From an uncultured Pseudomonadota bacterium (GTDB lineage: Bacteria > Pseudomonadota > Alphaproteobacteria > RF32 > CAG-239), in NCBI GenBank assembly GCA_949286215.1, contig CASDYX010000004.1, positions 20,001 through 84,000 on the forward strand: a stretch of DNA of 64,000 nucleotides, read 5' to 3'. The position numbers were made by a program, and so were the translations under genes. Positions 1 to 39,219 of this stretch are shown here, piece by piece. The notes under the pieces were generated by a model. The model worked only from the letters and a program-made list of their open reading frames with translations, had not been told where the DNA came from and ran no database searches. Within the stretch, counting starts at the first letter, position 1. The number at the start of each line of letters is the position of its first letter.

Positions 1-3000
1 AAATCACACTGCCTGTTCCGGTCGGAGAGGCTTCTGTTTTTCCTAAGCTCCGACGGTTCTTTTCGAGTTCACGTTTTCCGGTTACAACTGGGTCATCAAT
101 AAATACATCTTTCTTGCCTTGTCCACCAAGTTCTTTCGGATTGCGGTCTCTGGTTCTCATCCACAAATCTACGTTCGGATAAACAATAATGCGTGTGCCG
201 GCGGGAACATAGGTCAGCGGACGAATATTGGTCTTATCTGATAAGATTTGCTCAAATACTTGATTCATCTGATTCAAGAAGTTTTGGCGGGCATCGTTAG
301 CTGCTTGTTGTTTCGGGGTTTCATTTACACCCGAGTTGTCATTTTCATCATCTGCCATAATGTATGACGTATAGCTGGTTAGGGCCGTGGTCATAATCGG
401 CAAAGTATATTTCTTGAACAATTGTTGATCAAGATAACCCAGTGCGCCTCCTCGACCTTGGGCGTCTCCGGTAACACCGCTAAAGACAAACAATGAACCA
501 TCAGGACGAATGAGTCTTTCCCATGTTATTTGAACTTTTGCTGACTGAGATGTGGTTTCGGTTGTTCCGGTCAAACTTCCCAATGTGCCCATAATTCGGC
601 TTCCGGCGGGAATTATGATATTCCGTCCTTCTTCTGCATAAACATTTCGCTCGACAAATGCTGTTACCGGTGTTGGGTTATTACTGTCTATTGAACGAGC
701 TATAACTGCCGGAATCGGTTTATCTGCAAATATCATTTCACTTAAGTCAACTCGCCATGAAGATATTGCTTTTTTAATTCCTTGTTCGTCCCAATCTTTT
801 TGCATACCATCAAAAGTATCAGGGCTAATATTGCTGCTGATTTTTCCAACTTGCATATTGCTGCGTCGCTCTTGTTGAGCTGCGTCTAAAGCCATAGCTC
901 GTTGCGGGTCATATCTTTCTCCAGGACCAAAACCACCTCCAGGGCCGAGGTTTCCGCCAGGTCCTGTTCCTGTACCATAAGCTCCTCCTTGTCCAAAGGT
1001 TCCGGCCGGAATAAACATATCTTCGGCTGATGGTTTTGAGGTTTCTTCTATACCGATAAGGGCTCCTTCATCATCAATAACTAAGCCATCTGGCATACGA
1101 TGACCGACAACTTTTCCTTCTTTATTGACAACGCTGCCATCTTCCATAATATCGCCCAAATATTCTCCGTCTGGCGTTAAGGCAATACCTAATGAACGAC
1201 GATATTTCTCGGTCATTTTCTCTTCTTCGGGAGAAAGGCCAATTTCTGGTATGGAACTTGGGCGATTATACCAACCGGGACGACTGACCTTTCCTATTAC
1301 TTTTCCATTTTTATCTAGAACTTCGCCCTTTTCATTTACTTTACCTATTACGTTGCCGTCTTTATCAACAACCGTGCCATCGGGAAGAACTTTTCCTATG
1401 ACATTGCCATTTTCGTCATAGGCTAGATTTTCTTCTTTTTGGGGAGAAATAATTGAACCAATGGTATTGCCGTTGGCATCTATAATTGCACCGTTTTCTC
1501 CCAGCTTTCCAATTACCTTGCCGAAATTGTCAACGACCGTACCGTCTGGGAGAACTTTTCCTATGACATTGCCATTGGCATCATAGGCAACTTTGCTACT
1601 GGCTAATTCACCAATTACATTACCGTTTTTATCTACAACTTTTCCGTTTTGTACAGAACCGATTATTTTACCATTCTCGTCTGTTACGGTTCCATCGGCA
1701 TTAACATAACCTAAGAGATTTCCATTAACATCAAAAACTTTCTCTCTAGCAACTATCTCTCCATGATATTGAAGCGGTTTGGCAACGGCTATGACACGGC
1801 CATTGCTATCAATTATGCTGCCACTTTTGGTGATAGTTCCTAAAACATTATTATTTACATCTCGTAATTCGCCTTTTAGATTTAATTCACCTAAGATGCG
1901 GTTTGAATCGTCTCTGATGTAAAAGTCTCTGTTTCCGCGACCTTTTAGCTCTCCATTCTTATCAAGCAGGAAGCCTTTACTCAAAGTTCCTAAATTTTGA
2001 TTTACAAAAGATAAGACGCTGCCATCTTTCTGAATAACGCCAATTACCTCAAAGTCATTATCATAAATATAAAAATCATATAAAGCGTAACCTATTTTGT
2101 AGCCATCTTTTGTGACATTTCCCTCAAAGTCTACTTGACCAATGTTGTCTCCGCGAGCATCAATAACGGCACCATCTTGGGTGATATGACCTATATATTT
2201 GTTAGCATTGCTAAAGGCATAGTGATATTTAAACAGATGGCCTATCGGAGCACCGGTTTTTGAATTTACATTACCGTTTGCTTGCTCATAGCCGATAAAT
2301 TGATTTTCGGAATTTACGACCTGACCGTCTAAAACGCTGCGTCCAAGAATAACACCATTAAAACTCATTACCGGATAGTATTCAATGGTGTGTGCCAAAG
2401 AGACGCCTTCATCATTCTTTAAGAAGCCTCGCTTATCAATACAGCCCAAAATATTGTTGCTATAATTCAAAACTTGTCCGTTACTGGAAACTGTACCAAT
2501 TATGTTGCCATTATAATCAATAACAGCTGTCGGGTTGACGCTATAGCCGACATAAGAGCCGTTTTCTGAAACAACTTGTCCATTGAGCAAAGGTCTTCCC
2601 ATGACGGTTTCTCGATAATTGCGAACTTCTCCGCGAGAGGTAATAACACCTAAGAAAGAGCATTTATCGTCTATGGCGGTTGCATAATCTATAACACCAC
2701 CAATTGCAGAACCGGTATTGTCAAGCAAAGTTGCTTCGGAGGTGACTTTTCCTAGATTTGAACCGCCGAAATCTTTGGCTATACCTAAATTATTAACATA
2801 ACCGGCTAAACGACCATTAAAATATAGTGCTAAAGAAGCTTTTCGCCCTGTACCTTGCTGAGGCATCATATTTACTGACGCATTATCTGATGAAGAAACT
2901 AATGCTCCGTCAGGAATATATTTTCCGACGACGTTGCCGCTCGTTTTTTCGACCAGATTTCGGTTATTCAATAAACCAAGTGATTCTCCTTTTGAATCTA

Positions 3001-4489
3001 CAAAATAGCCATTTTCCAGACTTTTACCGATGATTAGGTTTCGTTCATCAACATTAAAACCGGATTGTGTTAATTTACCCAAGGCAGCAACATTCTTGTT
3101 GGTCAACTGTCCGTTAGGCATTATTTGAGCTACCGGCGTACCTGTAATGTTATAAATTGAGGATAAGGTTAAGCCTCGTCCAACCGACTTGCCGTCTGCT
3201 GAAAAAAGATAACCAAACGGAGACATATATTTTTTCTCTTCTCCATCCATAACAGAACCGCTAATACCCACAATTCCTAAGCTCTGGTTATTAGAATTCA
3301 CGGCTAATAAATTGTTCATTGTGGCGCCTATTGCGCGTCCGGTATTTTCGTATGCCATATTATCCATAATATAGCCGGCGGGCGTTCCTTCCATAGTTAC
3401 TATAGAGCCATTCTTTGAAGCATGTCCCTTTAGTGCTCCGCGATAATCAAAAACAGGTCCGGTTTTGATAATTTTACCAATGAGTTTTCCATCTGAAGAA
3501 AGGATTGCTCCTCTCGGACCGACTTGACCAATGTCGTCTTTTGCTTTGCGGACTTTTCCTTGAGGAACTACTCGTCCTAAATATTTACCATTTAAATCTG
3601 TAGCCGTTGCCGAAAAATCAACTACGGATCCTATAATTTCACCTTGTAAATTGACAATATTTTCATCTGCCTGAACACGACCGACAATATTGTTCTTATC
3701 AACGACTTCACCGTTGTATGTAACGAAGCCTAAATATTTTCCAGAGTTATCCAAAGCATAACCTGAACGAACAATACTTCCCATGATTTGATTGTCTTTA
3801 TTATAAACAAAACCATTGGCCTTGACATAACCAATCGTTTGAGCATCAAAATTGGTAACATTTCCTCCGGGGGAGACACTGCCGATAAAATCCCCACTTA
3901 GAGATACAACCATTTTTGAGGAAATCAGACGTCCGTCTAAAATATAATCTTGTCCGACTTTGCGATAGGCATAGCCGTCAGGAGATACAAAACCGATTGC
4001 CTGACCTTGTAAATTTGTGTATAAGCCATCGCCTGTCAAACGACCGACAGTTTTTCCATCGTCTGAATAAACAAGCCCAGGAAACAAAACAGAACCAACA
4101 ACATTAAAATATTCATCCAAGACCAAGCCGTTGGGCAATACTTTTGCTATTATTTTTCCTGAAGGAAGACGAACGGAACCATCATTATTGACTTTACCTA
4201 AGGGTTTATTATCATTGCCGATTGCAATACCTTGAGGAACAACGCCACCGATGATTGCGCCGTCAAAATCCAAAATCAAGCTGTCGGCCGTTACATTGCC
4301 GATTAATTGGTTGTCAAAACTTACGACTTTACCATCGGGAATAACTTTTCCGATTAAATCTCCGTTAAAGTCAACCGCCGTAATCTCCTGAGCTTGCGCA
4401 TTAAAGCAAAAGAGCAACATTCCCAAAAGAATGTTGAAAAATCTTAGTGTTTTGGCACAGTTTTTCTTTTTTGTTTTTTCCCGTCCCAA
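1..4489 (-). CDS. Giant tandem-repeat secreted or surface protein, N-terminal about 1500 aa; the ORF continues past the window start. Paralog of 4491..8414.
   Basis: The minus-strand frame is open from 4489 to position 1 with no stop, which is why it is missing from the ORF track. The only plus-strand ORFs here are short antisense artefacts. The likely start is TTG at 4487-4489, 6 nt after GGAGGA and 1 nt after the upstream TGA. The N-terminus KTKKKNCAKTLRFFNILLGMLLFCFNAQA/QE resembles a signal peptide. The body translates to repeats of the form NGN[VI]IG[KR]VxPDGTVVD, for example ...AVDFNGDLIGKVIPDGKVVSFDNQLIGNV... Confidence 0.6.
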   Translation of the reverse strand, partial: MGREKTKKKNCAKTLRFFNILLGMLLFCFNAQAQEITAVDFNGDLIGKVIPDGKVVSFDNQLIGNVTADSLILDFDGAIIGGVVPQGIAIGNDNKPLGKVNNDGSVRLPSGKIIAKVLPNGLVLDEYFNVVGSVLFPGLVYSDDGKTVGRLTGDGLYTNLQGQAIGFVSPDGYAYRKVGQDYILDGRLISSKMVVSLSGDFIGSVSPGGNVTNFDAQTIGYVKANGFVYNKDNQIMGSIVRSGYALDNSGKYLGFVTYNGEVVDKNNIVGRVQADENIVNLQGEIIGSVVDFSATATDLNGKYLGRVVPQGKVRKAKDDIGQVGPRGAILSSDGKLIGKIIKTGPVFDYRGALKGHASKNGSIVTMEGTPAGYIMDNMAYENTGRAIGATMNNLLAVNSNNQSLGIVGISGSVMDGEEKKYMSPFGYLFSADGKSVGRGLTLSSIYNITGTPVAQIMPNGQLTNKNVAALGKLTQSGFNVDERNLIIGKSLENGYFVDSKGESLGLLNNRNLVEKTSGNVVGKYIPDGALVSSSDNASVNMMPQQGTGRKASLALYFNGRLAGYVNNLGIAKDFGGSNLGKVTSEATLLDNTGSAIGGVIDYATAIDDKCSFLGVITSRGEVRNYRETVMGRPLLNGQVVSENGSYVGYSVNPTAVIDYNGNIIGTVSSNGQVLNYSNNILGCIDKRGFLKNDEGVSLAHTIEYYPVMSFNGVILGRSVLDGQVVNSENQFIGYEQANGNVNSKTGAPIGHLFKYHYAFSNANKYIGHITQDGAVIDARGDNIGQVDFEGNVTKDGYKIGYALYDFYIYDNDFEVIGVIQKDGSVLSFVNQNLGTLSKGFLLDKNGELKGRGNRDFYIRDDSNRILGELNLKGELRDVNNNVLGTITKSGSIIDSNGRVIAVAKPLQYHGEIVAREKVFDVNGNLLGYVNADGTVTDENGKIIGSVQNGKVVDKNGNVIGELASSKVAYDANGNVIGKVLPDGTVVDNFGKVIGKLGENGAIIDANGNTIGSIISPQKEENLAYDENGNVIGKVLPDGTVVDKDGNVIGKVNEKGEVLDKNGKVIGKVSRPGWYNRPSSIPEIGLSPEEEKMTEKYRRSLGIALTPDGEYLGDIMEDGSVVNKEGKVVGHRMPDGLVIDDEGALIGIEETSKPSAEDMFIPAGTFGQGGAYGTGTGPGGNLGPGGGFGPGERYDPQRAMALDAAQQERRSNMQVGKISSNISPDTFDGMQKDWDEQGIKKAISSWRVDLSEMIFADKPIPAVIARSIDSNNPTPVTAFVERNVYAEEGRNIIIPAGSRIMGTLGSLTGTTETTSQSAKVQITWERLIRPDGSLFVFSGVTGDAQGRGGALGYLDQQLFKKYTLPIMTTALTSYTSYIMADDENDNSGVNETPKQQAANDARQNFLNQMNQVFEQILSDKTNIRPLTYVPAGTRIIVYPNVDLWMRTRDRNPKELGGQGKKDVFIDDPVVTGKRELEKNRRSLGKTEASPTGTGSVI

Positions 4490-4490
4490 C

Positions 4491-7400
4491 TCAGTTCCTC
4501 CGGTTCTTTGCAACTTCCTGCAACGCATAGCCTGCAACTTTCTTATCCAAATTTACATATGAACCGTTGTTTTTAAGATAACCGACATTCTTGCCTTCGC
4601 TGTCTTGTACAATGCCTTCTGCATTTAAGCGACCGACGTAATTGCCGTCATTTCCTAAAATTGTGGCTCCTATCTTATAAATTTTTCCTATTATGTTGTC
4701 ATTGTTATCTATTGCCAAATCACCAGAAATGGCTCGACCAATGAGGCTACCTTCTTTGTTTCTGATTTTACCATCAAAATTTACATAGCCTACAACTTTA
4801 TCTGAGTTATCAATAACTATATCACCGTGGACAACTTCTCCGATTAATTTTCCTGATGCGCTGATTACATTGCCGTCTGACAAAACTCTGCCAACGACAA
4901 CATTTTCTTTATCAACAACTTGTCCGTTAGGCAACACTGAACCTATTGTATTACCCCCAAAATCAATAACGGTCCCTCTCCTTAGCAGACTCAGATTTTT
5001 ATCTGTCGAACCTCCTGGTAAAACAGCTGTAATTACTTCATTTTTCAAGTCTATTACGTCACCTATCGAATTTACGCGACCTTTATAATTTCCCCAAATA
5101 TCTACAACAATATTTTCGGGTATAACCTCGCCGATTACCGTCCCCTTCAAATCGATAACTTTACCATCAGAACTGGTGGTTCCGACTTTTGCTCCTTCCA
5201 TGCTGATAACCGTACCGTCTGTCGTAGCATAGCCTAAGAATGCTCCGTCATAACCAATTGCACTGCCTCTGGAAACAACTCCACCACGATAAAGCCCCTT
5301 GTTATCAATAAAATTGCCTTTAGCGTCTATTCGCCCTAAATTTTCACCAAAACGCGTAATAACTTGTCCGTCATGCGTAACCAAGCCTATCGTTTTGCCT
5401 TCAAAATCTGCTACAAAGCCTTTTTTGACGGTATTTCCTATCAAAGAATTGTAGAAATTCAGACCATCACCGTGGAGGCGACCGATTGCATTTCCTTTAG
5501 CGTCATAAACTTCTCCGTTGGGGAAAAGACGACCTTTGAAATTGCCTTCCGGAGAGATTATGGTTGCTTTTTCATCCATTAAAACACCAATAATTTCATT
5601 ACGGTCGTTAGCGACTAAATCATTGGCAAAAAGTTTGGCATCTGATTGTCCACTTATCGCAACTCGACCGTTTGGCCCTACTAGATTTAAGAAATTACCG
5701 TGTAAATCATAGGCATTCGTTTTTTCTAAAACACGACCAATATAGGCTCCGTCTTTATTGAAAACATCTCCGTAAGTGCCGACACAACCAACGGGAAGTT
5801 GTGATAAAGCTATAACCAAACCATCAGCAGAAACTTGCCCTAGGTATTCTCCGTCATAAGATAAAGCAACACCATTCCGGACAACACTTCCTATCACATC
5901 GCCTTTTTCACTTAATACCGTGCCATCAGGATTAACGCAACCAACGTAAACCCCTTCAGAAGAACGAACTATACCATCTGTTCCGACATCACCCATATAA
6001 GTACAATTGTTATCAAAGACTTTTCCGGTGCGCACAACTTCTCCGACATAGTTGTTTTCGGGGTCAACAATCACTCCATTGGGCATTGGTTTTAGCTTGG
6101 TTTCAGTATTGCCTTTTTTTATCTTACCATCAGCATCTAAATAGCCGATATTCTTACAACCATAACCAACAACCAAACCGCCCCTTACTAATTTGGCTAC
6201 GACTTCTGAACCCGAAGTATCACGAACCAAACCATTGGATAAAACTCGGCCAACAATTTTACTGTTTTGAACAACCGTTCCGTCGTTGTTGAGCTTTCCA
6301 AGAACTGTACCTTTCGGGGTAATCGGTATCATGCGGGTTTGAACCAATGCTCCTAATGTCTTATTTTGTGAGCTGATAATATTGCCGTTTTCATCAACAT
6401 AACCTATTTCATTACCATTTAGGTCAAATACTTTTCCGTTGGCATCAACATACCCGATAACCTTTCCGTCTTTATCTAAGACAAGATTAACAACCTCACC
6501 GGCTTTTCCGATAACATTTCCTTCCAAATCGACCAAAGTGCCATCGTCTAACATTTTTCCGATGATATTGCCGTTGAAATCAACAACGTTACCGTTTTCA
6601 TCAATATAGCCAATAACATTTCCATCTTTGTCGTATGCCAAGCGTCTTTGTGCGCCAATACTCATATCGGCAACTTTGCCTATGACATTACCGTTATTGT
6701 CAACAACCGTGCCATCGGGCAAAACACGACCTATAATATTGCCATTAGCATCTCGAACGTTGCCATCTTCATCCACATAACCTATGACATTGCCGTCTTT
6801 ATCATAGACCAAACGTCTGCCGGGGACATTTGCTGCTCGTCCTATTGTATTGCCCTCAGAATCCACAATTGTACCATCTGGCAAGACTTTTCCGATGATA
6901 TTGCCATTCAAATCTACGACATTACCGTTTTCATCAACTCGACCTATTATATTGCCGTTTTTATCATAAGCTAATCGTCTTTGAGGGATGGATACGGATT
7001 TTCCGATAATATTGCCATTTTCATCGACGACATTTCCATTGGCGTCGGTTTTACCTATTATATTGCCATTAGAATCGACAACATTTCCATTTGAATCAAC
7101 AAATCCTATAACCTTACCATTTTTATCATAAGCCAATTTTACCGAGCCACCGGCATTGCCTAAAACATTTTTGCCAACAACTTTTCCGTTTTCATCAACA
7201 TGACCAACAATATTGCCGTTTTTATCTACAACTGAACCGTCGGGCATTACAACACCAATCACATTTCCGTTTTCATCAACGGCAACGCGTCCTTGTTTGC
7301 TTACTCGACCAATTACTTTACCGTTAGCATCAACAGCCTCTCCGTTTGCATTGAGACGTCCGGTCACATTACCGTTCATATCAACAACCGTACCATCAGG

Positions 7401-8414
7401 CATGACACGACCGACAATATTGCCGTTTTCATCATATACAAATCCGGCGTCAACCGCTTTACCTATAACATTTCCATTAAGATCAACAACCGTGCCGTCG
7501 GGGAGCATACGACCAATTATGTTACCATCTTTATCAACTACCGTGCCATCGGGATTAACATAGCCAATAACATTACCATTAGCATCATAGACCAATCGAC
7601 GATTTTCTGCTACGCCTATGACATTTCCGTTTTCATCGACAATCATCCCTGCCGAATTTGCTCGTCCGATAATATTTCCATTGGCATCACGCACATAACC
7701 ATCTTCATCAATGGTACCGATTATTTCACCATTAGGACCAATCGCATTTCTTGTGCGGAGACCTTTTGCTTCCTGCCCATCATTTGCTTTGGCTCCATCT
7801 GTCGGAACTTGCTCACAGAAATTGCAATCTTCTTTGCGGATAGCGTTTCCTTCTACTGGAACTTTTTCTGATTTTGCATTTGCTGTTGTTAAATTGGATT
7901 CATGCCAGGTTATGATAAAATTATTTTGTACATTACCAGGCACAACCGGTGTCCAACTCATTGTGATATCACAAGTTTCATGACCGCGCAGTTCTTTATC
8001 CGTACAATCATCCTTAAAGGTAAAACCATCAAAAGGAGGTTCTGCCAATTGAACAGAAACAATTTTTATGGCTGCTTTGGCATTTGTTCCTATGGTCAGA
8101 ACATTTTTAGCATCCGTGCCCAAAACGACTTGCCCCATCTGTACCGGATTTGGGGTGGTTGTTATCGGAGGTTCTTTATCTTCAATCATCCCAAATTCAA
8201 TATTATTGCTTGTGCCGTTATCGGCGGCAATATTTAAGGCATCATCATTGGTTGTAAATACGGGTTCCGTATATTCATTTTCAACCGGACCACTTTGCAT
8301 TAAAAGCATTACACCCAGAACAAAGATTACAAACGAGGTAATACCAACCACAAATATTATGCGGTTGGTCTTCTTTATATAACTCTCCGAATGTGTTAAT
8401 ACCTCTTTGCTCAT
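4491..8414 (-). CDS. Giant tandem-repeat protein of 1307 aa. It has an N-terminal TM/signal anchor, about 40 copies of a 17-residue (10+7) repeat with consensus xNGN[VI]IG[KR]VxPDGTVVD, and a degenerate repeat tail.
   Basis: Complete ORF. The ATG overlaps the virB9-like stop as ATGA at 8411-8414. The N-terminal hydrophobic stretch is IIFVVGITSFVIFVLGVMLL. Spacing between Gly positions in the repeat region alternates 10 and 7 residues. Confidence 0.8.
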   Translation of the reverse strand: MSKEVLTHSESYIKKTNRIIFVVGITSFVIFVLGVMLLMQSGPVENEYTEPVFTTNDDALNIAADNGTSNNIEFGMIEDKEPPITTTPNPVQMGQVVLGTDAKNVLTIGTNAKAAIKIVSVQLAEPPFDGFTFKDDCTDKELRGHETCDITMSWTPVVPGNVQNNFIITWHESNLTTANAKSEKVPVEGNAIRKEDCNFCEQVPTDGAKANDGQEAKGLRTRNAIGPNGEIIGTIDEDGYVRDANGNIIGRANSAGMIVDENGNVIGVAENRRLVYDANGNVIGYVNPDGTVVDKDGNIIGRMLPDGTVVDLNGNVIGKAVDAGFVYDENGNIVGRVMPDGTVVDMNGNVTGRLNANGEAVDANGKVIGRVSKQGRVAVDENGNVIGVVMPDGSVVDKNGNIVGHVDENGKVVGKNVLGNAGGSVKLAYDKNGKVIGFVDSNGNVVDSNGNIIGKTDANGNVVDENGNIIGKSVSIPQRRLAYDKNGNIIGRVDENGNVVDLNGNIIGKVLPDGTIVDSEGNTIGRAANVPGRRLVYDKDGNVIGYVDEDGNVRDANGNIIGRVLPDGTVVDNNGNVIGKVADMSIGAQRRLAYDKDGNVIGYIDENGNVVDFNGNIIGKMLDDGTLVDLEGNVIGKAGEVVNLVLDKDGKVIGYVDANGKVFDLNGNEIGYVDENGNIISSQNKTLGALVQTRMIPITPKGTVLGKLNNDGTVVQNSKIVGRVLSNGLVRDTSGSEVVAKLVRGGLVVGYGCKNIGYLDADGKIKKGNTETKLKPMPNGVIVDPENNYVGEVVRTGKVFDNNCTYMGDVGTDGIVRSSEGVYVGCVNPDGTVLSEKGDVIGSVVRNGVALSYDGEYLGQVSADGLVIALSQLPVGCVGTYGDVFNKDGAYIGRVLEKTNAYDLHGNFLNLVGPNGRVAISGQSDAKLFANDLVANDRNEIIGVLMDEKATIISPEGNFKGRLFPNGEVYDAKGNAIGRLHGDGLNFYNSLIGNTVKKGFVADFEGKTIGLVTHDGQVITRFGENLGRIDAKGNFIDNKGLYRGGVVSRGSAIGYDGAFLGYATTDGTVISMEGAKVGTTSSDGKVIDLKGTVIGEVIPENIVVDIWGNYKGRVNSIGDVIDLKNEVITAVLPGGSTDKNLSLLRRGTVIDFGGNTIGSVLPNGQVVDKENVVVGRVLSDGNVISASGKLIGEVVHGDIVIDNSDKVVGYVNFDGKIRNKEGSLIGRAISGDLAIDNNDNIIGKIYKIGATILGNDGNYVGRLNAEGIVQDSEGKNVGYLKNNGSYVNLDKKVAGYALQEVAKNRRN

Positions 8415-10057
8415 TGCGTCCTTACTACGCTACAAAACACTCCGTTTCTTCCTAAACGACTGCACACATTATCGCCTGATTCCAAACTCTTTACAGGACC
8501 TACGCGTAAGTGAAACAGTTCTTTTCCTTGTCCATCTGCCGGTGCATCTACTGAGAAGAATGGCTCATAACGGCTCAAAACATCAGGATACTTTTTAGAA
8601 AGCTCACTCCACAAATTTTCCAAATTAGAGACATTGGCATCTGTTCCTAACTCAATTGAAATGTTTGAGCTGTCAGCATCAACAAATCCTGAACCAAAAC
8701 CATATCCGCCCTTGCTGCCTCCTTGAGAGCCACTATTTCCGGCATATTGATTATTGTTCTTTATGTGTTGCATTTTGGAATAATCATATCCATCGTTAGG
8801 CGGCTGGAAGCCAATATTTACGCCATTGCCGTTATTTCGGCCATTTGCCATATTATTGCCATAACGAGGAACAACTATTTCACTTTGGCCAACTTGAATA
8901 TCGTATTGTCCGGGCATGCCACCATTGGCTGAAGAATTAAATTCACTATCTCCACCGGATCCTCCCGTCGGGCGCATTGTTCCTCCCGGAAGCGGAGCCG
9001 GAACATCCCATGCGGCATCATCAAAATCTGTGGCGTAAGTTGCATTTTCCAGACCGGCGTCATCCGAACGGCGCATCTTTAAGCAAACAAGTCTTTTACC
9101 GTTACGCAAAACCATATCGCCAATACCTTCAACAATAATCAAGCGATTGTTCGGGCCTTTAGTTCTAAAGCCAACCGGAACTTCTATTCTTTCAACAATT
9201 AATGTGACTATCGGACGCTGTGTCATATTTAGAGCTTTTTCACCAAAATCAATATAAGTGAAAATATCATCTCTCCATACTCTTTCAGGTGCAATAACAA
9301 CATCATCAGGATTTGGAACATAAACCTCAATATCAAATCTAAATTTGCTAGGATCAACAGGAATGTCTTTTATCCAATCACTTCTTTGAAAGCGCTTGGT
9401 AAAAAGAGAATCTGCAGAGTGCGAATTATTAGCTTTGTAGGTTGAGGCGTTCACTCCCGAACCACCGCCGACACTGCCTCCGGATATTCCGGCTCCTCTT
9501 GAGCCTGCCGGTCCATCAATCACATCAATATCAATGATAGAGTTGGTCAAACGTTCTGTATTTACGCCTTCACTTTTTACATAAAATACATATTTATTTC
9601 CTGAACGACCAAAAATAATGATATTAGTATCAACGCCGACATTTGCTCCTTTTCGAGGATAGAGCAAAATTGTATTCGGACCGGAAATTTGCCCATCAAA
9701 TGTCGCATTGTCACCGATATACATATCCTCAATTAGTTCCCACTCAGGAAAATTAAGCAAAGTTATCATACCTTCACGAAGACGTATCGGCAAAATTAAA
9801 TCCGGTGACCAATAGTATTTAGAATATGCCGGTTTGCTTTGACCTTCACCCAGATTTTGGAGCGGATCGAGCCAAGCAGCCTGCGTCATTCCCAAAGAAT
9901 TAAAGCCGGCATAGCCAAGATTCATCGGCATATATTGCCCCTGACTTTGGTCGGCGTTTTGATCCAGACTGCCCATTGTTGCCTGAGATAGAGCATTACG
10001 GCTCAGCGTCAACGCAACGACCATTACTAATAAACTTTTGCCAACTTTCAAAATCAT
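8411..10057 (-). CDS. virB9: VirB9/CagX/TrbG-family outer-membrane core protein with a Gly/Asn-rich linker and a C-terminal SPOR-like peptidoglycan-binding domain
   Basis: It has a signal peptide MILKVGKSLLVMVVALTLSRNALSQA. The N-domain ILPIRLREGMITLLNFPEWELIEDMYIGDNATF...NTILLYPRKGANVGVDTNIIIFGRSGNKYVFYV fits the VirB9 N-domain pattern. The C-domain FRFDIEVYVPNPDDVVIAPERVWRDDIFTYIDFGE...RLIIVEGIGDMVLRNGKRLVCLK fits the VirB9 C-domain pattern. The C-terminal stretch ...ELFHLRVGPVKSLESGDNVCSRLGRNGVFCSVV resembles the FtsN SPOR motif RVVIGPVKGKENADSTLNRLKMAGHTNCIRL. Confidence 0.7.
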   Translation of the reverse strand: MILKVGKSLLVMVVALTLSRNALSQATMGSLDQNADQSQGQYMPMNLGYAGFNSLGMTQAAWLDPLQNLGEGQSKPAYSKYYWSPDLILPIRLREGMITLLNFPEWELIEDMYIGDNATFDGQISGPNTILLYPRKGANVGVDTNIIIFGRSGNKYVFYVKSEGVNTERLTNSIIDIDVIDGPAGSRGAGISGGSVGGGSGVNASTYKANNSHSADSLFTKRFQRSDWIKDIPVDPSKFRFDIEVYVPNPDDVVIAPERVWRDDIFTYIDFGEKALNMTQRPIVTLIVERIEVPVGFRTKGPNNRLIIVEGIGDMVLRNGKRLVCLKMRRSDDAGLENATYATDFDDAAWDVPAPLPGGTMRPTGGSGGDSEFNSSANGGMPGQYDIQVGQSEIVVPRYGNNMANGRNNGNGVNIGFQPPNDGYDYSKMQHIKNNNQYAGNSGSQGGSKGGYGFGSGFVDADSSNISIELGTDANVSNLENLWSELSKKYPDVLSRYEPFFSVDAPADGQGKELFHLRVGPVKSLESGDNVCSRLGRNGVFCSVVRTQ

Positions 10058-10078
10058 TTCCTAATACCTTAATCTACC

Positions 10079-10813
10079 TTATCGAACTTTGTTTAGCGTC
10101 AATGAATATCTATCTACCGTAAAGCCGACCGGGTTATTTAATCGTTCACCATATTTTACGCTTTTTTTAACATAACCGACACGGAGAGATGCCGTCCAAT
10201 AATTTATTTCCGGCTTAACAGAATCCGGATACATATCTTGAGTTTCATATTCTACTTGCCAAAGTCCTTGACCAAGCTCATTTACCGTTAAGATACGAAC
10301 ATTTCTTTGCAGGCTCTTGGTTCGGATAATTTCGATTGCCCTTTTAGCCGTCTTATTCAAAAATTCTTGATAAACTGCCGGAGAAGACATTTCTTGTATC
10401 GGGCCGCCCGGCATCCAACGAGCTTCCATTTCCGGAATATCCCTATCAAAAGAACTCCTTTGCAACACATATTCTCTCACAAACACTTCGGTAATGGCTT
10501 TTTCATCTGCCAAATTGCCCCTAACAGGAACAATATTATAAACCTGTTCCCCCTTTGCCTGAAACGTTAATAAAAACGGCTCTATACGGAACAAAGGCAT
10601 TACTTGAACAATTGCCAAAAACAACACGACATTACAGCACAAACTAATAGCTGTAATTACGGCGAATGCACGAGCCGTCCAAAGATATCTTTTTTCACCG
10701 ACATTCGCAACGAAGACGTCTTCCGTCGTACGAGACTTAACTTGCGACTGAGGACGCACCTGTCCCCCACCAATAAGACGTTGCTGTGTGTTATTTTCCA
10801 GACGATTATCCAT
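10079..10813 (-). CDS. virB8: VirB8-family protein: N-terminal cytoplasmic tail, one TM, and a periplasmic NTF2-like domain
   Basis: The single TM is AFAVITAISLCCNVVLFLAIVQV. The C-terminal NPVGFTVDRYSL matches the VirB8 NPxGF signature. Its size is 244 aa. Confidence 0.75.
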   Translation of the reverse strand: MDNRLENNTQQRLIGGGQVRPQSQVKSRTTEDVFVANVGEKRYLWTARAFAVITAISLCCNVVLFLAIVQVMPLFRIEPFLLTFQAKGEQVYNIVPVRGNLADEKAITEVFVREYVLQRSSFDRDIPEMEARWMPGGPIQEMSSPAVYQEFLNKTAKRAIEIIRTKSLQRNVRILTVNELGQGLWQVEYETQDMYPDSVKPEINYWTASLRVGYVKKSVKYGERLNNPVGFTVDRYSLTLNKVR

Positions 10814-10821
10814 TGGTTTTC

Positions 10822-11010
10822 CTAAATCGTTTCAACAAACCAATCGGGAAGATTTTTAGGCAGTTCAACCTGCATACAAGCGCAAGGTGATAACTTCAAT
10901 TCATCAACACCTTTACCAACGCCTACCGGTTCAGCCTCATAATATGAACCAAAAATGCCGCAAGATGATAGCAGCATGAGCACAAAAAGCATAATTATCT
11001 TTTTTGACAT
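10822..11010 (-). CDS. virB7: Small lipoprotein, VirB7-like by position and size
   Basis: It is 62 aa with the lipobox LLSSC in MSKKIIMLFVLMLLSSCG. It sits between the two virB8 paralogs. Confidence 0.55.
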   Translation of the reverse strand: MSKKIIMLFVLMLLSSCGIFGSYYEAEPVGVGKGVDELKLSPCACMQVELPKNLPDWFVETI

Positions 11011-11124
11011 GTCTTAATTTCCTTATCTATATTATTCGAGTACTCTTATAGATGTTATGAAATTATACTCTTTTTCATTAAAAGTCTAATATCGTCTTGC
11101 GAAAATCCCCAACTTATCAACAAA

Positions 11125-11883: not shown

Positions 11884-11898
11884 CTCGTCCTCTTGCCG

Positions 11899-16512: not shown

Positions 16513-16525
16513 TCTTTTTCTCCTT

Positions 16526-17881
16526 TTAGAAGCCTATTCCAAGGCTACCTGTTGCTGACTTGGCTGCTGATAAACCATCTTGTGCCGTGCTTAGTCCAGA
16601 TTTTGCTTTGCCGGCTAAATTACTTAGATTATCTTTACTGAAAAAGCTCGGCTTTTCGTACTTATAATCGTCTAAGTTAAACTGGGTAACATCTTTGTTC
16701 GGATTGTTAAGTTTTCCGGCATTAATACTAGCCAGGTCTGAAGAACTTTTCATCTTCATCTCCTGAACCAATAATTTGGTGTAATCCAGCAGAGCTTGCA
16801 TATTTTGGACTTTTAATTGTGTATCTAATACGATTGCTGCGCTAGAGCCATCCATCATTGCAACGTTAGAGGCTGTATCATCTGCTTTTTCACTATTTTC
16901 ACCTCTATTGGCACGCATTTTTAATGCTAATGAATAAGCGCGCAGAATATCAGCTGTTTTTGTCTTTTGACGATATTCTTCAACCTTTTTCATATTTTCA
17001 GTAGTGAGTTCTTCTTTTTCTGGCACAAAATTATTGGAAATGGTTTGATTAAGTGCCGCTGCCGATTGGCTTTTATCACCAAACAAAGATTTAGCTGCTC
17101 CAATGCCATCTTTAGCAAGGCTTAAACTTTCTTGGGCGGCTTTTTCCTGCAAGGTCTGAATTTGTTTATCAATAGTCGCTACTTGCGCTTGATAAGCTGA
17201 CTGCTCTTTTTCTTCATTAGCCTCGTATTCTGCTTGAAGTTTCTTGATTGCCTCATTGTTGGCGGCTATTTTATCTTCTAACGCTTCTTTTTGTGAAGGA
17301 TCTTGTGCAATCTGTTGTTGGTAAACAGCATTATTATCCTGATAGGATTTTATTTTTCCTTCATATTCCGTTTTGCGTGCTTCTGCCGCTGTATTATATT
17401 CAGATTCTAATGCGCTTTTCTCATTTTTAAGGCTCAATAATTGTTGGGCGGACTGAGTATTACTTGCCATGGATGAAGCTGCTGAAAGAGCTCCTCCGGC
17501 AGCAGAACCTACTGCTCCCGAAGCGGCGCCTGAAACATCACCAACCGTACCACTAACTTCACTCGTTATATCGCCAACGGCAGATGTGGCCGTATTTTTA
17601 ACATCGTTTATGGCACCTGTGGTTTGGTTAATCCCTTCTTTTACAGCATTCGCCTGTTCTTTTAACCATTTTGCGGTTTCCATAGCTCCTTTACCATAGG
17701 CTATCATGGTTTGAATTGTGGTGGATTCATTTATGAGGGTTTGTGCCTGCTCTGCCCAACCACTTACCGTTCCTTGCACCTTATTGGCTGTGTTAGATAT
17801 ATCAAATTTTATTCCGGCTTGGCTCGGAAGACTAATTATTATTCCCAAAAGACAACTCAGAGCAAAAAGTATTTTTTTCAT
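16526..17881 (-). CDS. Secreted coiled-coil protein of 451 aa
   Basis: It has a signal peptide MKKILFALSCLLGIIISLPSQA. Its ATG overlaps the upstream stop as ATGA at 17878-17881. It is rich in Ala, Gln, Glu and Lys. Confidence 0.65.
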   Translation of the reverse strand: MKKILFALSCLLGIIISLPSQAGIKFDISNTANKVQGTVSGWAEQAQTLINESTTIQTMIAYGKGAMETAKWLKEQANAVKEGINQTTGAINDVKNTATSAVGDITSEVSGTVGDVSGAASGAVGSAAGGALSAASSMASNTQSAQQLLSLKNEKSALESEYNTAAEARKTEYEGKIKSYQDNNAVYQQQIAQDPSQKEALEDKIAANNEAIKKLQAEYEANEEKEQSAYQAQVATIDKQIQTLQEKAAQESLSLAKDGIGAAKSLFGDKSQSAAALNQTISNNFVPEKEELTTENMKKVEEYRQKTKTADILRAYSLALKMRANRGENSEKADDTASNVAMMDGSSAAIVLDTQLKVQNMQALLDYTKLLVQEMKMKSSSDLASINAGKLNNPNKDVTQFNLDDYKYEKPSFFSKDNLSNLAGKAKSGLSTAQDGLSAAKSATGSLGIGF

Positions 17882-18663
17882 GAGTCCTCCTCGGCATAGG
17901 TAAATTGTCTTGCCTGTTGAGTGCTATTAAATTCAAAAAGCATAGTGTTCATCAGCATTATTTTGCGAAATCGTTTAGCCATTTCCATTGATTTTGACTT
18001 TGTACTTTGAATTATATCTCGCGTATTTTCTTTGTCGGTTTCTTCGGCTTCTTCTTTTGCCAGATTAGATCTGATACTAAAAGCTGTTGCATATAAGTTA
18101 GCAAAATTGGCACGCTGAATTTCGTTCATCTTTTCTTCTTGCTCGTTATATATTTTGACCAAATCTGTTGTTTCTGAACTATCAGCGTTGCTTGATGTTG
18201 ATTGATTGCTTGCAGATGATGAGGTGCTTGTGTTGGATTTTGGGCGTTGCATAAAATAGTTGTTTTGGACAGCTGAGCTGAGTGCTTTAGCATCATTTAA
18301 GTCTACCTTGGTGGCAAAACCCGGCATTGAGCTACCCAAAGTGTCGAGTGAACCTTCAGGATCATTGGCAAAATTTTGCACTGCATTTACTTTATCTTTA
18401 ACAGCACTAATGTTATTGCTAATATCATTTTTTACCGAATTTACGGTATTGACAGCACTTTTGACTGTTCCCATAGCTCCCTCTGCTGCAGAGCGGATAT
18501 CTTGCTGAATTTCGTTTAAATCTTGTTGAACAGAACGAGCCTCTTCCAATCCTGTTTTGATCGGACCTAAGACTGTTCCTTGCACAGCTTCAATATCCGC
18601 ATAAGATACCTGCGGCCAAAACAAGCTTAGCGCCAACAAGAAATATGTCGACAGCCTTTTCAT
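17878..18663 (-). CDS. Secreted alpha-helical protein of 261 aa; possibly a VirB5/TrbJ-like minor pilus component by size and position
   Basis: It has a signal peptide MKRLSTYFLLALSLFWPQVSYA. It is translationally coupled at both ends. No family motif was recognised with confidence. Confidence 0.55.
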   Translation of the reverse strand: MKRLSTYFLLALSLFWPQVSYADIEAVQGTVLGPIKTGLEEARSVQQDLNEIQQDIRSAAEGAMGTVKSAVNTVNSVKNDISNNISAVKDKVNAVQNFANDPEGSLDTLGSSMPGFATKVDLNDAKALSSAVQNNYFMQRPKSNTSTSSSASNQSTSSNADSSETTDLVKIYNEQEEKMNEIQRANFANLYATAFSIRSNLAKEEAEETDKENTRDIIQSTKSKSMEMAKRFRKIMLMNTMLFEFNSTQQARQFTYAEEDS

Positions 18664-27914: not shown

Positions 27915-28253
27915 TTAAATGTTACCAAATGTGGTTGCTAAGCCTGCTTCGGTAGAACCGGTTGCATATTCAACGATTGAACCTGCGGCTGCCAAAATTG
28001 CCAAACCTACTGCAAGGCCGGCAAACCAAGTCCATTTTACCTTACCAATAATTGCTGAGTAAGCAATACCGACCAAACCGAAACCACCTAAAATAAAGGT
28101 AATGGTTTTAACACTATCAAATACGTTACGTGTTTTCGTAGTTGCAGTATTCATCAAGCTGGCACCATCAGCCCAAGCTTCTCCACAAAAACCCATTGCT
28201 ACAATCAAGGTCAAGCAGCAAAGAGTTAAAATATTTTTCTTAATAAATTTCAT
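27915..28253 (-). CDS. virB2: VirB2/TrbC-family pilin
   Basis: It is 112 aa with a signal peptide ending AWA/DG and two hydrophobic helices. It is the first gene of the minus-strand cluster. Confidence 0.75.
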   Translation of the reverse strand: MKFIKKNILTLCCLTLIVAMGFCGEAWADGASLMNTATTKTRNVFDSVKTITFILGGFGLVGIAYSAIIGKVKWTWFAGLAVGLAILAAAGSIVEYATGSTEAGLATTFGNI

Positions 28254-30554: not shown

Positions 30555-30620
30555 GCCTTGGTAATAAGTCGTGCCTGACGCTTGATTATTTATTTTTCAA
30601 TATGTATTATAGGGAAAAAT

Positions 30621-32922: not shown

Positions 32923-32934
32923 GGATTTATAAAA

Positions 32935-35713: not shown

Positions 35714-35721
35714 GATGAAAT

Positions 35722-37386: not shown

Positions 37387-37389
37387 GGA

Positions 37390-38520: not shown

Positions 38521-38524
38521 AACT

Positions 38525-39124: not shown

Positions 39125-39219
39125 ACTAAAATTTGTCATAAAAGATTAAACAAATATTATTCTTTTTTATGATAAACTGTCGGTTATAGTTTTAAGTTCC
39201 GTTGATTTACGAGGGCATA

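Follow-up and report, generated by a model that had tools for sequence, protein, structure and literature searches.

The window, a stretch of 64,000 nucleotides from an uncultured gut alphaproteobacterium, contains most of a type IV secretion system (T4SS). Positions 1 to 28,253, together with 1.2 kb outside the window start, make up operon 1, the larger of two convergent operons that span ~48 kb and encode a complete, chromosomally fixed "expanded" VirB-type (type IVA, P-type) T4SS. An earlier note on this DNA had read it as a VirB-like locus rich in large lineage-specific secreted proteins, with the T4SS genes closely set on one strand, and this reading was correct: the intergenic gaps ranged from -11 to +196 nt. 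In the direction of transcription, operon 1 encodes two VirB2 pilins, a giant protein with a VirB2 domain, VirB3 and VirB4, then four coiled-coil secreted proteins, VirB8-VirB7-VirB8, VirB9 with a SPOR domain, the membrane-anchored beta-flower protein, the giant VirB10 with its beta-flower array, and VirB11.

Table 1 Features of operon 1 inside the window, listed in the order of transcription.
Feature	Position	Strand	Basis
VirB2 pilin paralog a, 112 aa, first gene of the operon	27915..28253	-	Pfam TrbC/VirB2 PF04956, E=2.3e-9
VirB2 pilin paralog b, 149 aa	27426..27875	-	Pfam TrbC (PF04956), 1.3e-6
1145-aa secreted protein with embedded VirB2 pilin domain, aa 470-546	23964..27401	-	blastp to the VirB2 paralogs
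VirB3, 96 aa	23477..23767	-	tblastn versus annotated VirB3 of Microvirga pMVF16-3: 31% identity, E=1e-6
VirB4 ATPase, 810 codons	21055..23487	-	Pfam CagE_TrbE_VirB PF03135 4e-9, P-loop
773-aa secreted protein, coiled coil followed by Ala/Pro/Thr-rich 32-aa tandem repeat	18660..20981	-	signal peptide
261-aa secreted all-helical protein	17878..18663	-	VirB5-like in size and position
451-aa secreted coiled-coil protein	16526..17881	-	signal peptide
1537-aa secreted protein, conserved N- and C-terminal regions, variable coiled-coil middle	11899..16512	-	
VirB8 paralog a, more divergent copy, 252 aa	11125..11883	-	Pfam VirB8 2e-17
VirB7-like lipoprotein, 62 aa, between the virB8 genes	10822..11010	-	lipobox LLSSC
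VirB8 paralog b, more canonical copy, 244 aa	10079..10813	-	Pfam VirB8 7.2e-21, NCBIfam VirB8 2e-15
VirB9, 548 aa, with C-terminal SPOR peptidoglycan-binding domain	8411..10057	-	Pfam CagX 2.4e-11, SPOR 5.9e-6
1307-aa inner-membrane-anchored beta-flower repeat protein	4491..8414	-	Pfam Bflower_2 9.5e-83, DUF3659, RHS_repeat, weak ASH
Giant VirB10, 1574 aa in full	1..4489	-	Pfam TrbI PF03743 7.5e-34, Bflower_2 1.9e-69

The two VirB2 pilins claimed previously both matched the pilin family and were homologous to each other (24% identity, E=1e-11); paralog a has a signal peptide and two hydrophobic helices. Pfam and NCBIfam searches with the 1145-aa protein gave no match. In blastp, its embedded domain was 34–38% identical to the two pilins (E of 2e-10 and 1.6e-9), with hydrophobic helices at residues 474–509, a ~450-aa coiled-coil arm on the N-terminal side and a ~600-aa arm on the C-terminal side. 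This pilin domain was overlooked by the first reading. The gene is accessory, being missing from one related locus (L089) and encoding 1430 aa in another (L090).

The assignment of VirB3, which had no Pfam match, was backed by its similarity to the annotated Microvirga plasmid protein. It contains one hydrophobic helix, and its gene lies directly upstream of virB4 with an 11-nt overlap. VirB4 was likewise recognized correctly by its family domain and P-loop (Walker A motif GPTGQGKT), and an intact ortholog matched NCBIfam TIGR00929 (VirB4_CagE) at 3.5e-108. Unseen by the first reading, virB4 of the window strain contains an in-frame TGA at 22381–22383 (codon 369), and the machine may therefore be dead in this strain. 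It is quite conceivable, if not our favoured view, that the window strain carries a recently inactivated pseudogene cluster, which would apply to the strain rather than the family and could hold alongside the functional readings discussed below. The TGA replaces an Arg codon kept in all relatives examined, whose VirB4 proteins are intact (807–811 aa, 81–92% identical), and it is the sole virB4 change relative to a 99.87%-identical strain (L093), which has AGA at this site. On the other hand, every other gene is intact in the window strain, the lone A-to-T change could stem from an error of consensus calling or sequencing in the metagenome assembly, and no independent assembly of exactly this strain covering virB4 was found.

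The five proteins reported as secreted (773, 261, 451, 1537, and 1145 aa) all carry signal peptides, and the number of secreted coiled-coil genes between virB4 and virB8 varies from four to six among loci. The 773-aa protein, for which Pfam and NCBIfam gave coiled-coil noise only, is encoded with a 96-bp repeat (4.4 copies, 19812–20229), and near-identical strains have orthologs of 773, 741, and 677 aa that differ by whole repeat units. The 261-aa protein had only 16 homologs among 5.8 billion proteins, no match in the PDB, and no detectable homology to plasmid VirB5 proteins (hhalign probability 7.6%); its structure prediction was uninformative (AF2 pLDDT 41). The 451-aa protein had no family match in Pfam or NCBIfam, and its AF2 single-sequence model, one long helix that was confident only at residues 150–240, was also uninformative. 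The 1537-aa protein had no match in Pfam or NCBIfam either. Its C-terminal 538 aa recruited 208 cluster representatives, all matching at their own C-terminus; the full-length relatives are mostly 1050–1855 aa (1235 aa in L089 and 1305 aa in L090), and the other representatives look like fragments. Between the window and L089, the accessory proteins are 26–37% identical (29% for the 451-aa protein), compared with 86% for VirB4 and 77% for VirB7.

The arrangement of two VirB8 paralogs around a VirB7-like lipoprotein, as described previously, was supported by Pfam for the VirB8 proteins and by a Microvirga match for the lipoprotein, which was 43% identical over 28 aa (tblastn, E=5.7e-5) to a 58-aa gene that occupies the VirB7 position in the Microvirga operon. 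The VirB8 paralogs share 30% identity (E=1e-31) and grouped together in a crude neighbour-joining tree, and the top PDB matches of paralog b were the VirB8 proteins of Bartonella and Agrobacterium. VirB9 was also identified correctly by the earlier note, and it additionally bears a SPOR tail, the last ~31 aa of which match VirB9 proteins encoded on plasmids in Sphingosinicella and Erythrobacter.

Both giant 17-residue-repeat proteins noted before are beta-flower proteins (Table 1). One of them overturns the claim that VirB10 is missing, since the ORF at the window start ends in a TrbI/VirB10 domain at about nt 161–733 (NCBIfam ComB10 1.3e-31, VirB10 domain 4.4e-27). This giant VirB10 begins with a signal peptide, which is followed by a beta-flower hairpin array, then a Gly-rich linker, and finally the C-terminal TrbI/VirB10 barrel domain. 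Its last 78 codons lie outside the window start, and the full length was read from a contig (L001) that is 100% identical to window positions 1–10100. The 1307-aa protein has a short N-terminal tail, a transmembrane helix (aa 19–37), an Ig-like domain, and about 36 hairpins of 17 residues, and over ~1100 aa it shares 26–29% identity with the giant VirB10. All fetched loci with sufficient sequence upstream of virB10 contain its gene. The Ig-like domain of the protein has weak similarity to the N-terminal domain of VirB10 from Microvirga (blastp 1e-4, hhalign probability 15%). On the basis of topology and this weak similarity, we propose that the 1307-aa protein could be the N-terminal half of a split VirB10. 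The beta-hairpin (beta-flower/YD-like) repeats are divergent in DNA and left just weak 51-bp tandem signals. The lengths of the two proteins differ by hundreds of residues among relatives, with giant VirB10 ORFs of about 1405–2372 codons. Together, the signal peptides, the fast divergence, the variable gene number and repeat copy number, and the length variation of VirB10 and its partner are signs of surface exposure.

The reported absences of VirB11 and VirB6 were window-edge effects. The virB11 gene is the next one after virB10 and starts 249 nt past base 1 on contig L001, encoding a 322-aa protein (T2SSE; NCBIfam TIGR02788 VirB11, 8.2e-43). The adjoining convergent operon 2 contains four tandem polytopic VirB6 paralogs of 935, 438, 699, and 1247 aa, which are mutually homologous (blastp 1e-10 to 1e-42). 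Every paralog type matched the same part of the Pfam TrbL/VirB6 profile in at least one genome, with scores of 27.4, 26.8, 25.7, 23.5, and 22.0 bits against a Pfam cut-off of 25.9. One paralog is fused to cell-wall hydrolase domains, M23 (3e-18) and VgrG3-like lysozyme (3e-11), which probably play a VirB1-like role; a separate VirB1 is absent from the locus. Of the 80 VirB11-anchored loci, 35 have a VirB6-like gene downstream of virB11, and at least some of the other contigs stop short of this site. Other products of operon 2 are a regulator, two lipoproteins, and cytoplasmic proteins that lack signal peptides, among them a 1029-aa acidic repeat protein. The outer-membrane core is complete (VirB7 lipoprotein, VirB9, and VirB10), and the inner-membrane components VirB6 and VirB8 are both present.

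Of the four components that the earlier note had considered replaced by giant proteins, only VirD4 is still unfound. That note had allowed for an ordinary T4SS with the missing genes just beyond the window start; VirB11 and VirB6 are indeed there, and VirB10 is inside the window, so that the "unusual composition" arose mostly from the reading and from the window edge. The absence of VirD4 stands for the whole ~48-kb locus. With two plasmid VirD4 queries, tblastn gave no match in the window or in 92 related loci, and VirD4 was also absent from 46 kb of the rightward flank (36 kb of the window beyond operon 1 and 10 kb past the window end) and, in all 80 related species loci, from the sequence that follows virB11 (up to 10 kb). 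The only Walker-A proteins across both operons are VirB4 and VirB11. In the closest sequence relatives virD4 follows virB11 directly, so the gut locus has lost the gene at this place. Relaxase, VirB5, and canonical VirB6 likewise gave no tblastn match in the window or the 92 related loci. Among the locus proteins, no VirB5 (PF07996) was detected by Pfam, NCBIfam, hhalign, or PDB profile searches, and the fast-evolving helical secreted proteins could conceal one.

Species-representative genomes from the gut of humans, mice, ruminants, and chickens yielded about 200 matching stretches, and relatives of VirB4 number more than 1000. The hosts of the related loci are gut MAGs labelled Alphaproteobacteria, Azospirillum, or Candidatus Scatocola, the last of which is placed in Rhodospirillales by NCBI. 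On one side the locus is bordered by an rRNA operon and on the other by housekeeping genes, the surrounding synteny is kept across relatives, and its GC content equals that of its surroundings. From its flanks and GC content, the locus is chromosomal and long-resident. Core proteins are 81–100% identical across the roughly 200 species-level genomes, and vertical inheritance therefore fits. A type IVb pilus cluster adjoins the T4SS locus.

We lean towards the view that the locus encodes a complete chromosomal "expanded" VirB T4SS that acts as a cell-surface organelle without a cis-encoded coupling protein, and not as a conjugation machine. Of the functional readings, we consider a pilus, adhesin fibre, or similar surface organelle, as already suggested by the earlier note, the most likely. 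VirB4 and VirB11 would energise the assembly of a VirB2 pilus, while the VirB2-domain giant and the signal-peptide-bearing coiled-coil proteins would enter the periplasm via the Sec pathway and then decorate or tip the pilus, or leave to the surface. The beta-flower arrays of the putative split VirB10 pair and VirB9-SPOR could form an enlarged, peptidoglycan-associated periplasmic cage that connects the 1307-aa protein's anchor in the inner membrane with the VirB10 barrel in the outer membrane, and the hydrolase domains borne by VirB6 may open the cell wall locally. The likely purpose would be to attach the cell to host mucosa or other cells, or to interact with them in a contact-dependent manner.

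Alternatively, the system might translocate effectors, as do Cag, rvh, and the bacterial-killing system of Xanthomonas, with VirD4 encoded elsewhere in the chromosome, cytoplasmic effectors injected into host or rival cells, and the coiled-coil proteins serving as structural or adhesive accessories. We regard this as rather unlikely, while noting that the energising and channel set is entire (VirB3, VirB4, VirB6, VirB8, VirB9, VirB10, and VirB11), that the multicopy VirB6 and duplicated VirB8 are shared with the rvh effector system (PMC11077975, PMC4676284), and that the acidic repeat protein of operon 2 could be a substrate. T4SS genes are scattered over the genome in Rickettsia (PMC4676284), and if a VirD4 gene exists elsewhere in this genome, the system could be an ordinary effector translocator. 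The negative VirD4 searches in the locus, its right flank, and the 80 related loci, and the loss of virD4 from its place after virB11, argue against it.

A merely rearranged mating-pair-formation module of an integrated conjugative element or plasmid is very improbable. The closest VirB4, VirB9, VirB10, and VirB11 proteins do occur on alphaproteobacterial plasmids that carry a MobA/MobL relaxase and VirD4 beside the same core order, and some conjugative elements have an adjoining type IVb pilus cluster, but no relaxase or VirD4 was present in any of about 100 fetched stretches, and the flanks, the conserved synteny, the GC content, and the high identity of the core proteins all speak for a resident chromosomal locus. 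A truly minimal T4SS-derived organelle, in which giant proteins substitute for VirB6, VirB10, and VirB11, is almost certainly wrong. In its favour, positions 1–28,253 themselves encode no polytopic protein and no second ATPase; against it, the VirB10 domain lies within them, VirB11 begins just outside, and the four VirB6 paralogs of the neighbouring operon are kept across relatives.

Returning to the surface organelle that we prefer, this "expanded" variant of the VirB T4SS is undescribed in the literature searched. We tentatively suggest that it may represent a type IVA class of its own, fixed in the chromosomes of a whole lineage of gut Alphaproteobacteria from humans, mice, ruminants, and chickens. 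A plasmid-type VirB ancestor would have independently acquired features like those of rvh and Cag (two VirB8 copies around VirB7, a tandem set of four oversized VirB6, and a giant VirB10 with repeats), in addition to a split VirB10 with ~1100-residue beta-flower arrays on both its inner-membrane-anchored and outer-membrane halves, a pilin domain in the 1145-aa protein, and hydrolases fused to VirB6, with no coupling protein at all. It would serve these common commensals as a variable host- or cell-contact organelle. If this is true, traits held as signatures of Rickettsiales rvh and Helicobacter Cag arose independently in gut commensals.

By sequence, the closest systems are the P-type plasmid T4SSs of Microvirga sp. 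VF16 (pMVF16-3), Erythrobacter aureus YH-07, and Sphingosinicella sp. BN140058 (p1). Identities are 35–39% for VirB4, 33% for VirB9 and 34% for the VirB10 domain (both with Microvirga), 32% for VirB8, 31% for VirB3, and 41–43% for VirB11, the last measured with the copies of gut relatives because virB11 lies outside the window. The core order B2-B3-B4-...-B7-B8-B9-B10-B11 is shared. The plasmids have one VirB8 and a VirB10 of 530–590 aa, whereas in the gut locus VirB8 is duplicated and VirB10 is giant and apparently split. The Erythrobacter VirB5 is recognisable by Pfam, unlike the proteins in the VirB5 position of the other two plasmids, and a 420–450-aa hypothetical protein between B5 and B7 is a candidate VirB6 by position alone. 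The plasmids have VirD4 directly after VirB11 and a MobA/MobL relaxase upstream; the gut locus has neither, nor a recognisable VirB5, and has in addition four relocated giant VirB6 paralogs and 5–7 extra secreted proteins.

No described operon layout fits the locus as a whole, as the earlier note stated, but its denial of any likeness to rvh was wrong: the local order VirB8-VirB7-VirB8-VirB9-(...)-VirB10-VirB11 is that of Rickettsia typhi, rvhB8-II, rvhB7, rvhB8-I, rvhB9-II, rvhB10, rvhB11 (PMC4676284). Both systems are chromosomal and lineage-wide and have tandem, multicopy, oversized VirB6 genes. Up to three of the five rvh hallmarks are seen in the gut locus, namely VirB8 duplication, multicopy VirB6, and perhaps the lack of VirB5, none being detectable (PMC11077975), whereas VirB4 and VirB9, duplicated in rvh, are single in the ~48 kb. 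The gut locus further differs in lacking VirD4 after VirB11 and in its host, which is outside Rickettsiales, and rvh has neither the beta-flower VirB10 nor the coiled-coil gene set. The VirB8 duplications look independent, because the gut copies group together and their nearest relatives are single-copy; the comparison with Rickettsia covered one PDB chain, a weak match (E=0.0099).

The giant VirB10 recalls CagY, the VirB10 homolog of the Helicobacter pylori Cag system that is giant through a large internal repeat region, and both systems have an enlarged VirB9 and several lineage-specific proteins among the core genes (PMC9371333). No Cag-specific component (Cag3, CagM, CagT, CagL, and others) was matched by Pfam at E<=0.01 in positions 1–28,253, and sequence kinship is limited to shared VirB domains, the generic CagX/VirB9 and CagE/VirB4. 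A further difference lies in the repeats, which in the gut locus are beta-hairpins with divergent DNA.

The Cag T4SS has a VirD4 homolog, Cag-beta. VirD4 is lacking from Bartonella Trw, an adhesion pilus in which VirB2, B5, B6, and B7 are amplified, and from Bordetella Ptl, a T4SS that exports the Sec-delivered pertussis toxin. Neither Trw nor Ptl is known to have a giant VirB10 or a hydrolase-fused VirB6. In gene content, the gut locus resembles both in having no coupling protein in the locus. It shares multiple VirB2 and VirB6 genes with Trw, which also amplifies VirB5, undetectable in the gut locus, and it resembles Ptl in that candidate cargo or decoration proteins with Sec signal peptides are encoded in the operon.

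Judged by gene content, the ~48-kb locus was shown to encode a predicted type IVA secretion machine that is complete except for VirD4 and a recognisable VirB5. Its first part, operon 1, comprises the minus-strand T4SS genes of the window, whose large ORFs are close-set (gaps of -11 to +196 nt), and virB11 beyond the window start. Profile searches recovered core components that the earlier note had read by eye, namely two VirB2 pilins (TrbC/VirB2 matches), VirB4 (CagE_TrbE_VirB and a P-loop domain), VirB8 twice, and VirB9 (CagX with a C-terminal SPOR domain). Two small ORFs without a Pfam match also kept their assignments: in a Microvirga plasmid operon, an annotated VirB3 resembled the 96-aa VirB3 (E = 1e-6), and the gene placed where VirB7 is expected resembled the 62-aa VirB7-like lipoprotein, which has a lipobox (E = 5.7e-5). 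The tail of the VirB9 SPOR region (last ~31 aa, in the window and in virB9 of the related stretches L100 and L092) matched VirB9 of Sphingosinicella and Erythrobacter plasmids, so this tail may belong to the T4SS clade at large and not be specific to the gut lineage; the SPOR domain as such was confirmed in the window VirB9 alone.

The two giant 17-residue-repeat proteins were real, and their hairpins were assigned by Pfam to beta-flower families and DUF3659/RHS (Bflower_2, E = 9.5e-83 and 1.9e-69), a fold first defined in 2023 (PMC10584680). The giant repeat ORF at the window start closes with a TrbI/VirB10 domain (PF03743, E = 7.5e-34), contrary to the earlier note, which had reported VirB10 as missing; it also matched the NCBIfam VirB10/ComB10 domain and was 34% identical to plasmid VirB10. 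An independently assembled contig (L001), 100% identical to window positions 1-10100, gave the full VirB10 of 1574 aa, in which a signal peptide is followed by ~1150 residues of beta-flower hairpins fused to the VirB10 domain. On the same contig, a gene for a 322-aa VirB11, likewise thought absent, starts 249 nt past window base 1 (T2SSE, 1.4e-21; TIGR02788, 8.2e-43; Walker A present). VirB6 had been missed as well, and four VirB6-like polytopic paralogs were found in operon 2, beyond the window. Three of the four claimed absences (VirB10, VirB11, and VirB6) are thus due to an unrecognised domain ending a repeat protein and to the window edge, a caution that such domains and edges can mimic gene absence. 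The idea that the 17-residue repeats recombine at the DNA level, like those of cagY, was rejected, as only weak 51-bp tandem signals appeared.

Positions of the features discussed, in the window or in stretches fetched from related genomes (L-numbers)
Feature	Source	Position	Strand	Product
Operon 1, large ORFs	window	1-28253	-	
Giant VirB10 (part in window)	window	1-4489	-	
TrbI/VirB10 domain	window	~161-733	-	
Beta-flower partner	window	4491-8414	-	1307 aa
VirB9	window	8411-10057	-	
VirB9 SPOR region	window	8420-8659	-	
Accessory protein	window	11899-16512	-	1537 aa
Accessory protein	window	16526-17881	-	451 aa
Accessory protein	window	17878-18663	-	261 aa
Accessory protein	window	18660-20981	-	773 aa
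96-bp tandem repeat	window	19812-20229		
VirB4	window	21055-23487	-	
In-frame TGA of virB4	window	22381-22383	-	
Accessory protein with VirB2 domain	window	23964-27401	-	1145 aa
Type IVb pilus cluster	window	28554-40182	+	
VWA-domain protein, PP2C phosphatase, Ser/Thr protein kinase	window	41476-44361	+	
AIDA-type autotransporter adhesin	window	58474-62040	+	1188 aa
VirB6-hydrolase fusion	L045	16758-19778	-	
VirB6-hydrolase fusion	L082	8211-11954	+	
Acidic repeat protein	L004	13721-16810	-	1029 aa
rRNA operon	L087	338-5186	-	

Operon 2 begins just past VirB11 and is convergent on operon 1. Its first genes encode a 144-aa lipoprotein, a 281-aa protein, and a two-helix protein of 63 aa. Next come four polytopic proteins in tandem (935, 438, 699, and 1247 aa), then a regulator with a double HTH, an acidic repeat protein found either whole (1029 aa) or in two pieces (368 + 554 aa), a 228-aa protein, a lipoprotein of 420 aa, and a bitopic protein of 234 aa; the uncharacterised products of operon 2 gave coiled-coil noise only in NCBIfam. 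The polytopic proteins are mutually paralogous (blastp 1e-10 to 1e-42), and every paralog type matched the same stretch of the Pfam TrbL/VirB6 profile in at least one genome, with scores of 27.4, 26.8, 25.7, 23.5, and 22.0 bits that are borderline against the cut-off of 25.9 bits. Together with topology and paralogy, these scores suggest that all four are VirB6 proteins; when the alignment of the VirB6 fusion was run as a profile against PDB, it matched M23 peptidases only and no solved VirB6 chain. A VirB6-like gene lies downstream of virB11 in 35 of 80 VirB11-anchored loci; among the remainder, the contig ends earlier in at least some cases. In the 1247-aa paralog, a signal peptide, a Peptidase_M23 domain (3e-18), and a VgrG3-like lysozyme domain (3e-11) all precede the VirB6 module, and the hydrolase domains may supply the cell-wall cutting that is done elsewhere by VirB1. 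The hydrolase part differs among relatives, being M23 plus lysozyme-like (~1240 aa) in some versus M23 only (~890-1010 aa) in others, as compared between L045 and L082. The acidic protein of L004 has no signal peptide and ~8 copies of the motif ENADGQDWEWEYEE(V/I)PE, and its split form is found in L082; it is possibly a substrate or cytoplasmic partner of the machine.

The fourth claimed absence held: no VirD4 was present in the window or operon 2, in the stretch of up to 10 kb that follows virB11 in 80 species loci, or within 10 kb past the right end of the window, the search being confined to the window, operon 2, and the fetched related loci with their flanks. Queries from the nearest plasmids for VirD4, MobA/MobL relaxase, VirB5, and proteins at the expected VirB6 position gave no tblastn match in the window and 92 loci. 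The Walker-A proteins in both operons were VirB4 and VirB11 only.

The five long proteins described as secreted (773, 261, 451, 1537, and 1145 aa) each begin with a signal peptide, and none matched a family beyond coiled-coil noise in Pfam profile searches or, for all but the 261-aa protein, in NCBIfam. Embedded in the 1145-aa protein is a VirB2 pilin domain (aa 470-546, 34-38% identity to both pilins, E ~1e-10); this giant is missing in one relative and has 1430 aa in another. A homolog search with the 261-aa protein yielded 16 relatives only, from which AF2 gave an unreliable model (pLDDT 41), and a PDB profile search found nothing; hhalign against plasmid VirB5 proteins gave its candidacy as VirB5 no support (probability 7.6%). 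The model of the 451-aa protein, a single long helix (pLDDT 52), was uninformative, and for the C-terminal domain of the 1537-aa protein a search of 1.84 billion representatives recovered nothing outside its own family of giant proteins and fragments.

Between the window and the related locus L089, core parts were conserved but accessory parts were not. Protein identities were 86% for VirB4, 77% for VirB7, 70% for VirB3, 64% and 68% for VirB8a and VirB8b, and 66% and 51% for VirB2a and VirB2b, compared with 37%, 36%, 29%, and 26% for the 773-, 1537-, 451-, and 261-aa proteins. Relatives have four to six genes between virB4 and virB8, and across 80 species the VirB10 ORF ranged over ~1405-2372 codons and its beta-flower partner over ~1071-1842. 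The tandem repeat in the 773-aa gene has 4.4 copies (92% matches) of a unit encoding 32 Ala/Pro/Thr-rich residues; in strains sharing an identical 261-aa protein, the product of this gene is 773, 741, or 677 aa long, whole 96-bp units apart. The fast divergence and repeat-number variation of accessory proteins would fit their exposure to pressure from host or competitors.

The virB4 of the window has an in-frame TGA in place of a conserved Arg codon. A single A-to-T change (AGA to TGA) is the sole virB4 nucleotide difference from the 99.87%-identical strain L093, where VirB4 is intact. The TGA is not a trait of the system but either a nonsense allele at strain level or an error of assembly. 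The idea that the system features a split virB4 was rejected given this one-base distance from a sister strain, and TGA recoding was dismissed because Arg occupies the position in relatives and TGA terminates other genes here.

VirB4 had more than 1000 relatives, the best 120 of which were 81-92% identical and intact (807-811 aa). A VirB11 scan with one genome per species gave ~200 matching stretches, and the 80 retrieved loci (VirB11 88-100% identical) came from human, mouse, ruminant, rabbit, and chicken gut MAGs titled uncultured Alphaproteobacteria, Azospirillum sp., or Candidatus Scatocola. NCBI places Ca. Scatocola in Rhodospirillales; we take the GTDB order of these genomes to be RF32. 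The GC content of the T4SS region is the same as that of the remaining window, and operon 1 is neighboured by a type IVb pilus cluster, past which lie housekeeping genes, while in a relative an rRNA operon (16S, two tRNAs, 23S, 5S) adjoins the start of operon 2. The rRNA operon explains why several assemblies break at this border; by estimated coordinates, contigs of two assemblies (ERZ16268236 scaffold_16 and ERZ4198922 NODE_4) end near it. The start of the pilus cluster also adjoins virB2 in the relatives L089 (as far as the first ATPase gene) and L090 (first three genes). The system thus looks like a long-resident chromosomal one, not a mobile element. The pilus cluster, divergent from virB2, encodes a 666-aa protein without Pfam match, a TcpQ-like protein, secretin, PilO, a 503-aa protein of unknown family, a T2SSE ATPase, a T2SSF platform protein, a bundlin-like pilin, and a second T2SSE ATPase. 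Farther along the window are adjacent VWA, phosphatase, and kinase genes and, beside rpsA, an autotransporter adhesin (Autotransporter beta-domain, E = 7.7e-29).

We propose that VirB4 and VirB11 would assemble a VirB2 pilus. Given pilin topology, the VirB2-domain giant would have both long arms facing the periplasm or the exterior, as decoration of the pilus. Sec would carry the coiled-coil proteins to the periplasm, after which they would be mounted on or released by the machine, whose core would be anchored in the cell wall by VirB9-SPOR, with local cutting by M23/lysozyme-VirB6. VirB10 may be split between two proteins, one forming its inner-membrane half and the other its outer-membrane half, with beta-flower arrays as the junction; this is the weakest step of the proposal. 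The N-terminus of the 1307-aa protein, a short cytoplasmic tail and a transmembrane helix, is as expected for VirB10, and the Ig-like domain of this protein faintly resembles a Microvirga VirB10 domain (blastp 1e-4; hhalign probability 15%); the giant VirB10 has at its N-terminus nothing but a cleavable signal peptide, and the two beta-flower arrays are paralogous (26-29% identity over ~1100 aa).

Gut Alphaproteobacteria of this type are widespread and uncultured in the human and animal gut, and to our knowledge their interactions with the host or with neighbouring cells have hardly been described. A conserved ~48-kb machine with fast-diversifying surface components is a strong candidate for such interaction. 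No description of this system was found in the literature searched, the coverage of which was incomplete. For T4SS biology it would be a third natural example of a minimal VirB machine made larger, with a VirB10 apparently divided over two polypeptides and VirB6-hydrolase fusions, and it would give the beta-flower fold a first functional context.

The annotated systems nearest in sequence are carried by Microvirga, Erythrobacter, and Sphingosinicella plasmids (VirB4 35-39%), with the order relaxase, DnaB-like, B2, B3, B4, two to three mostly unannotated proteins, B7, B8, B9, B10, B11, and VirD4. The proteins between B4 and B7 include a Pfam-recognisable VirB5 in the Erythrobacter plasmid, and each plasmid system has a single VirB8 and an ordinary-sized VirB10. 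On sequence grounds, the gut system looks like a domesticated, enlarged descendant of such a plasmid P-type system. The local order VirB8-VirB7-VirB8-VirB9-...-VirB10-VirB11 is that of R. typhi (rvhB8-II, rvhB7, rvhB8-I, rvhB9-II, rvhB10, rvhB11; PMC4676284), and multicopy VirB6 is a further rvh hallmark, as is the lack of VirB5 (PMC11077975), of which no recognisable copy was detected in the gut locus. Unlike rvh, however, the gut locus has single VirB4 and VirB9 and no VirD4 after VirB11, and its two VirB8 copies are each other's nearest relatives with single-copy closest outgroups; we therefore read the resemblance as probable convergence, in a comparison whose tree held no Rickettsiales sequences. 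That several rvh hallmarks occur outside Rickettsiales bears on their use in recognising rickettsial genomes. The 'expanded' Cag system has a giant repeat-bearing VirB10 (CagY) and many lineage-specific proteins (PMC9371333), as does the gut locus. None of the Cag-specific families was matched there. The Trw system of Bartonella and the Ptl system of Bordetella have no coupling protein; Trw carries extra VirB2/VirB6 copies, and Ptl handles Sec-dependent cargo. At this level of general comparison, the gut locus recalls both, with no coupling protein in the locus, extra VirB2 and VirB6-like copies, and Sec-dependent candidate cargo.
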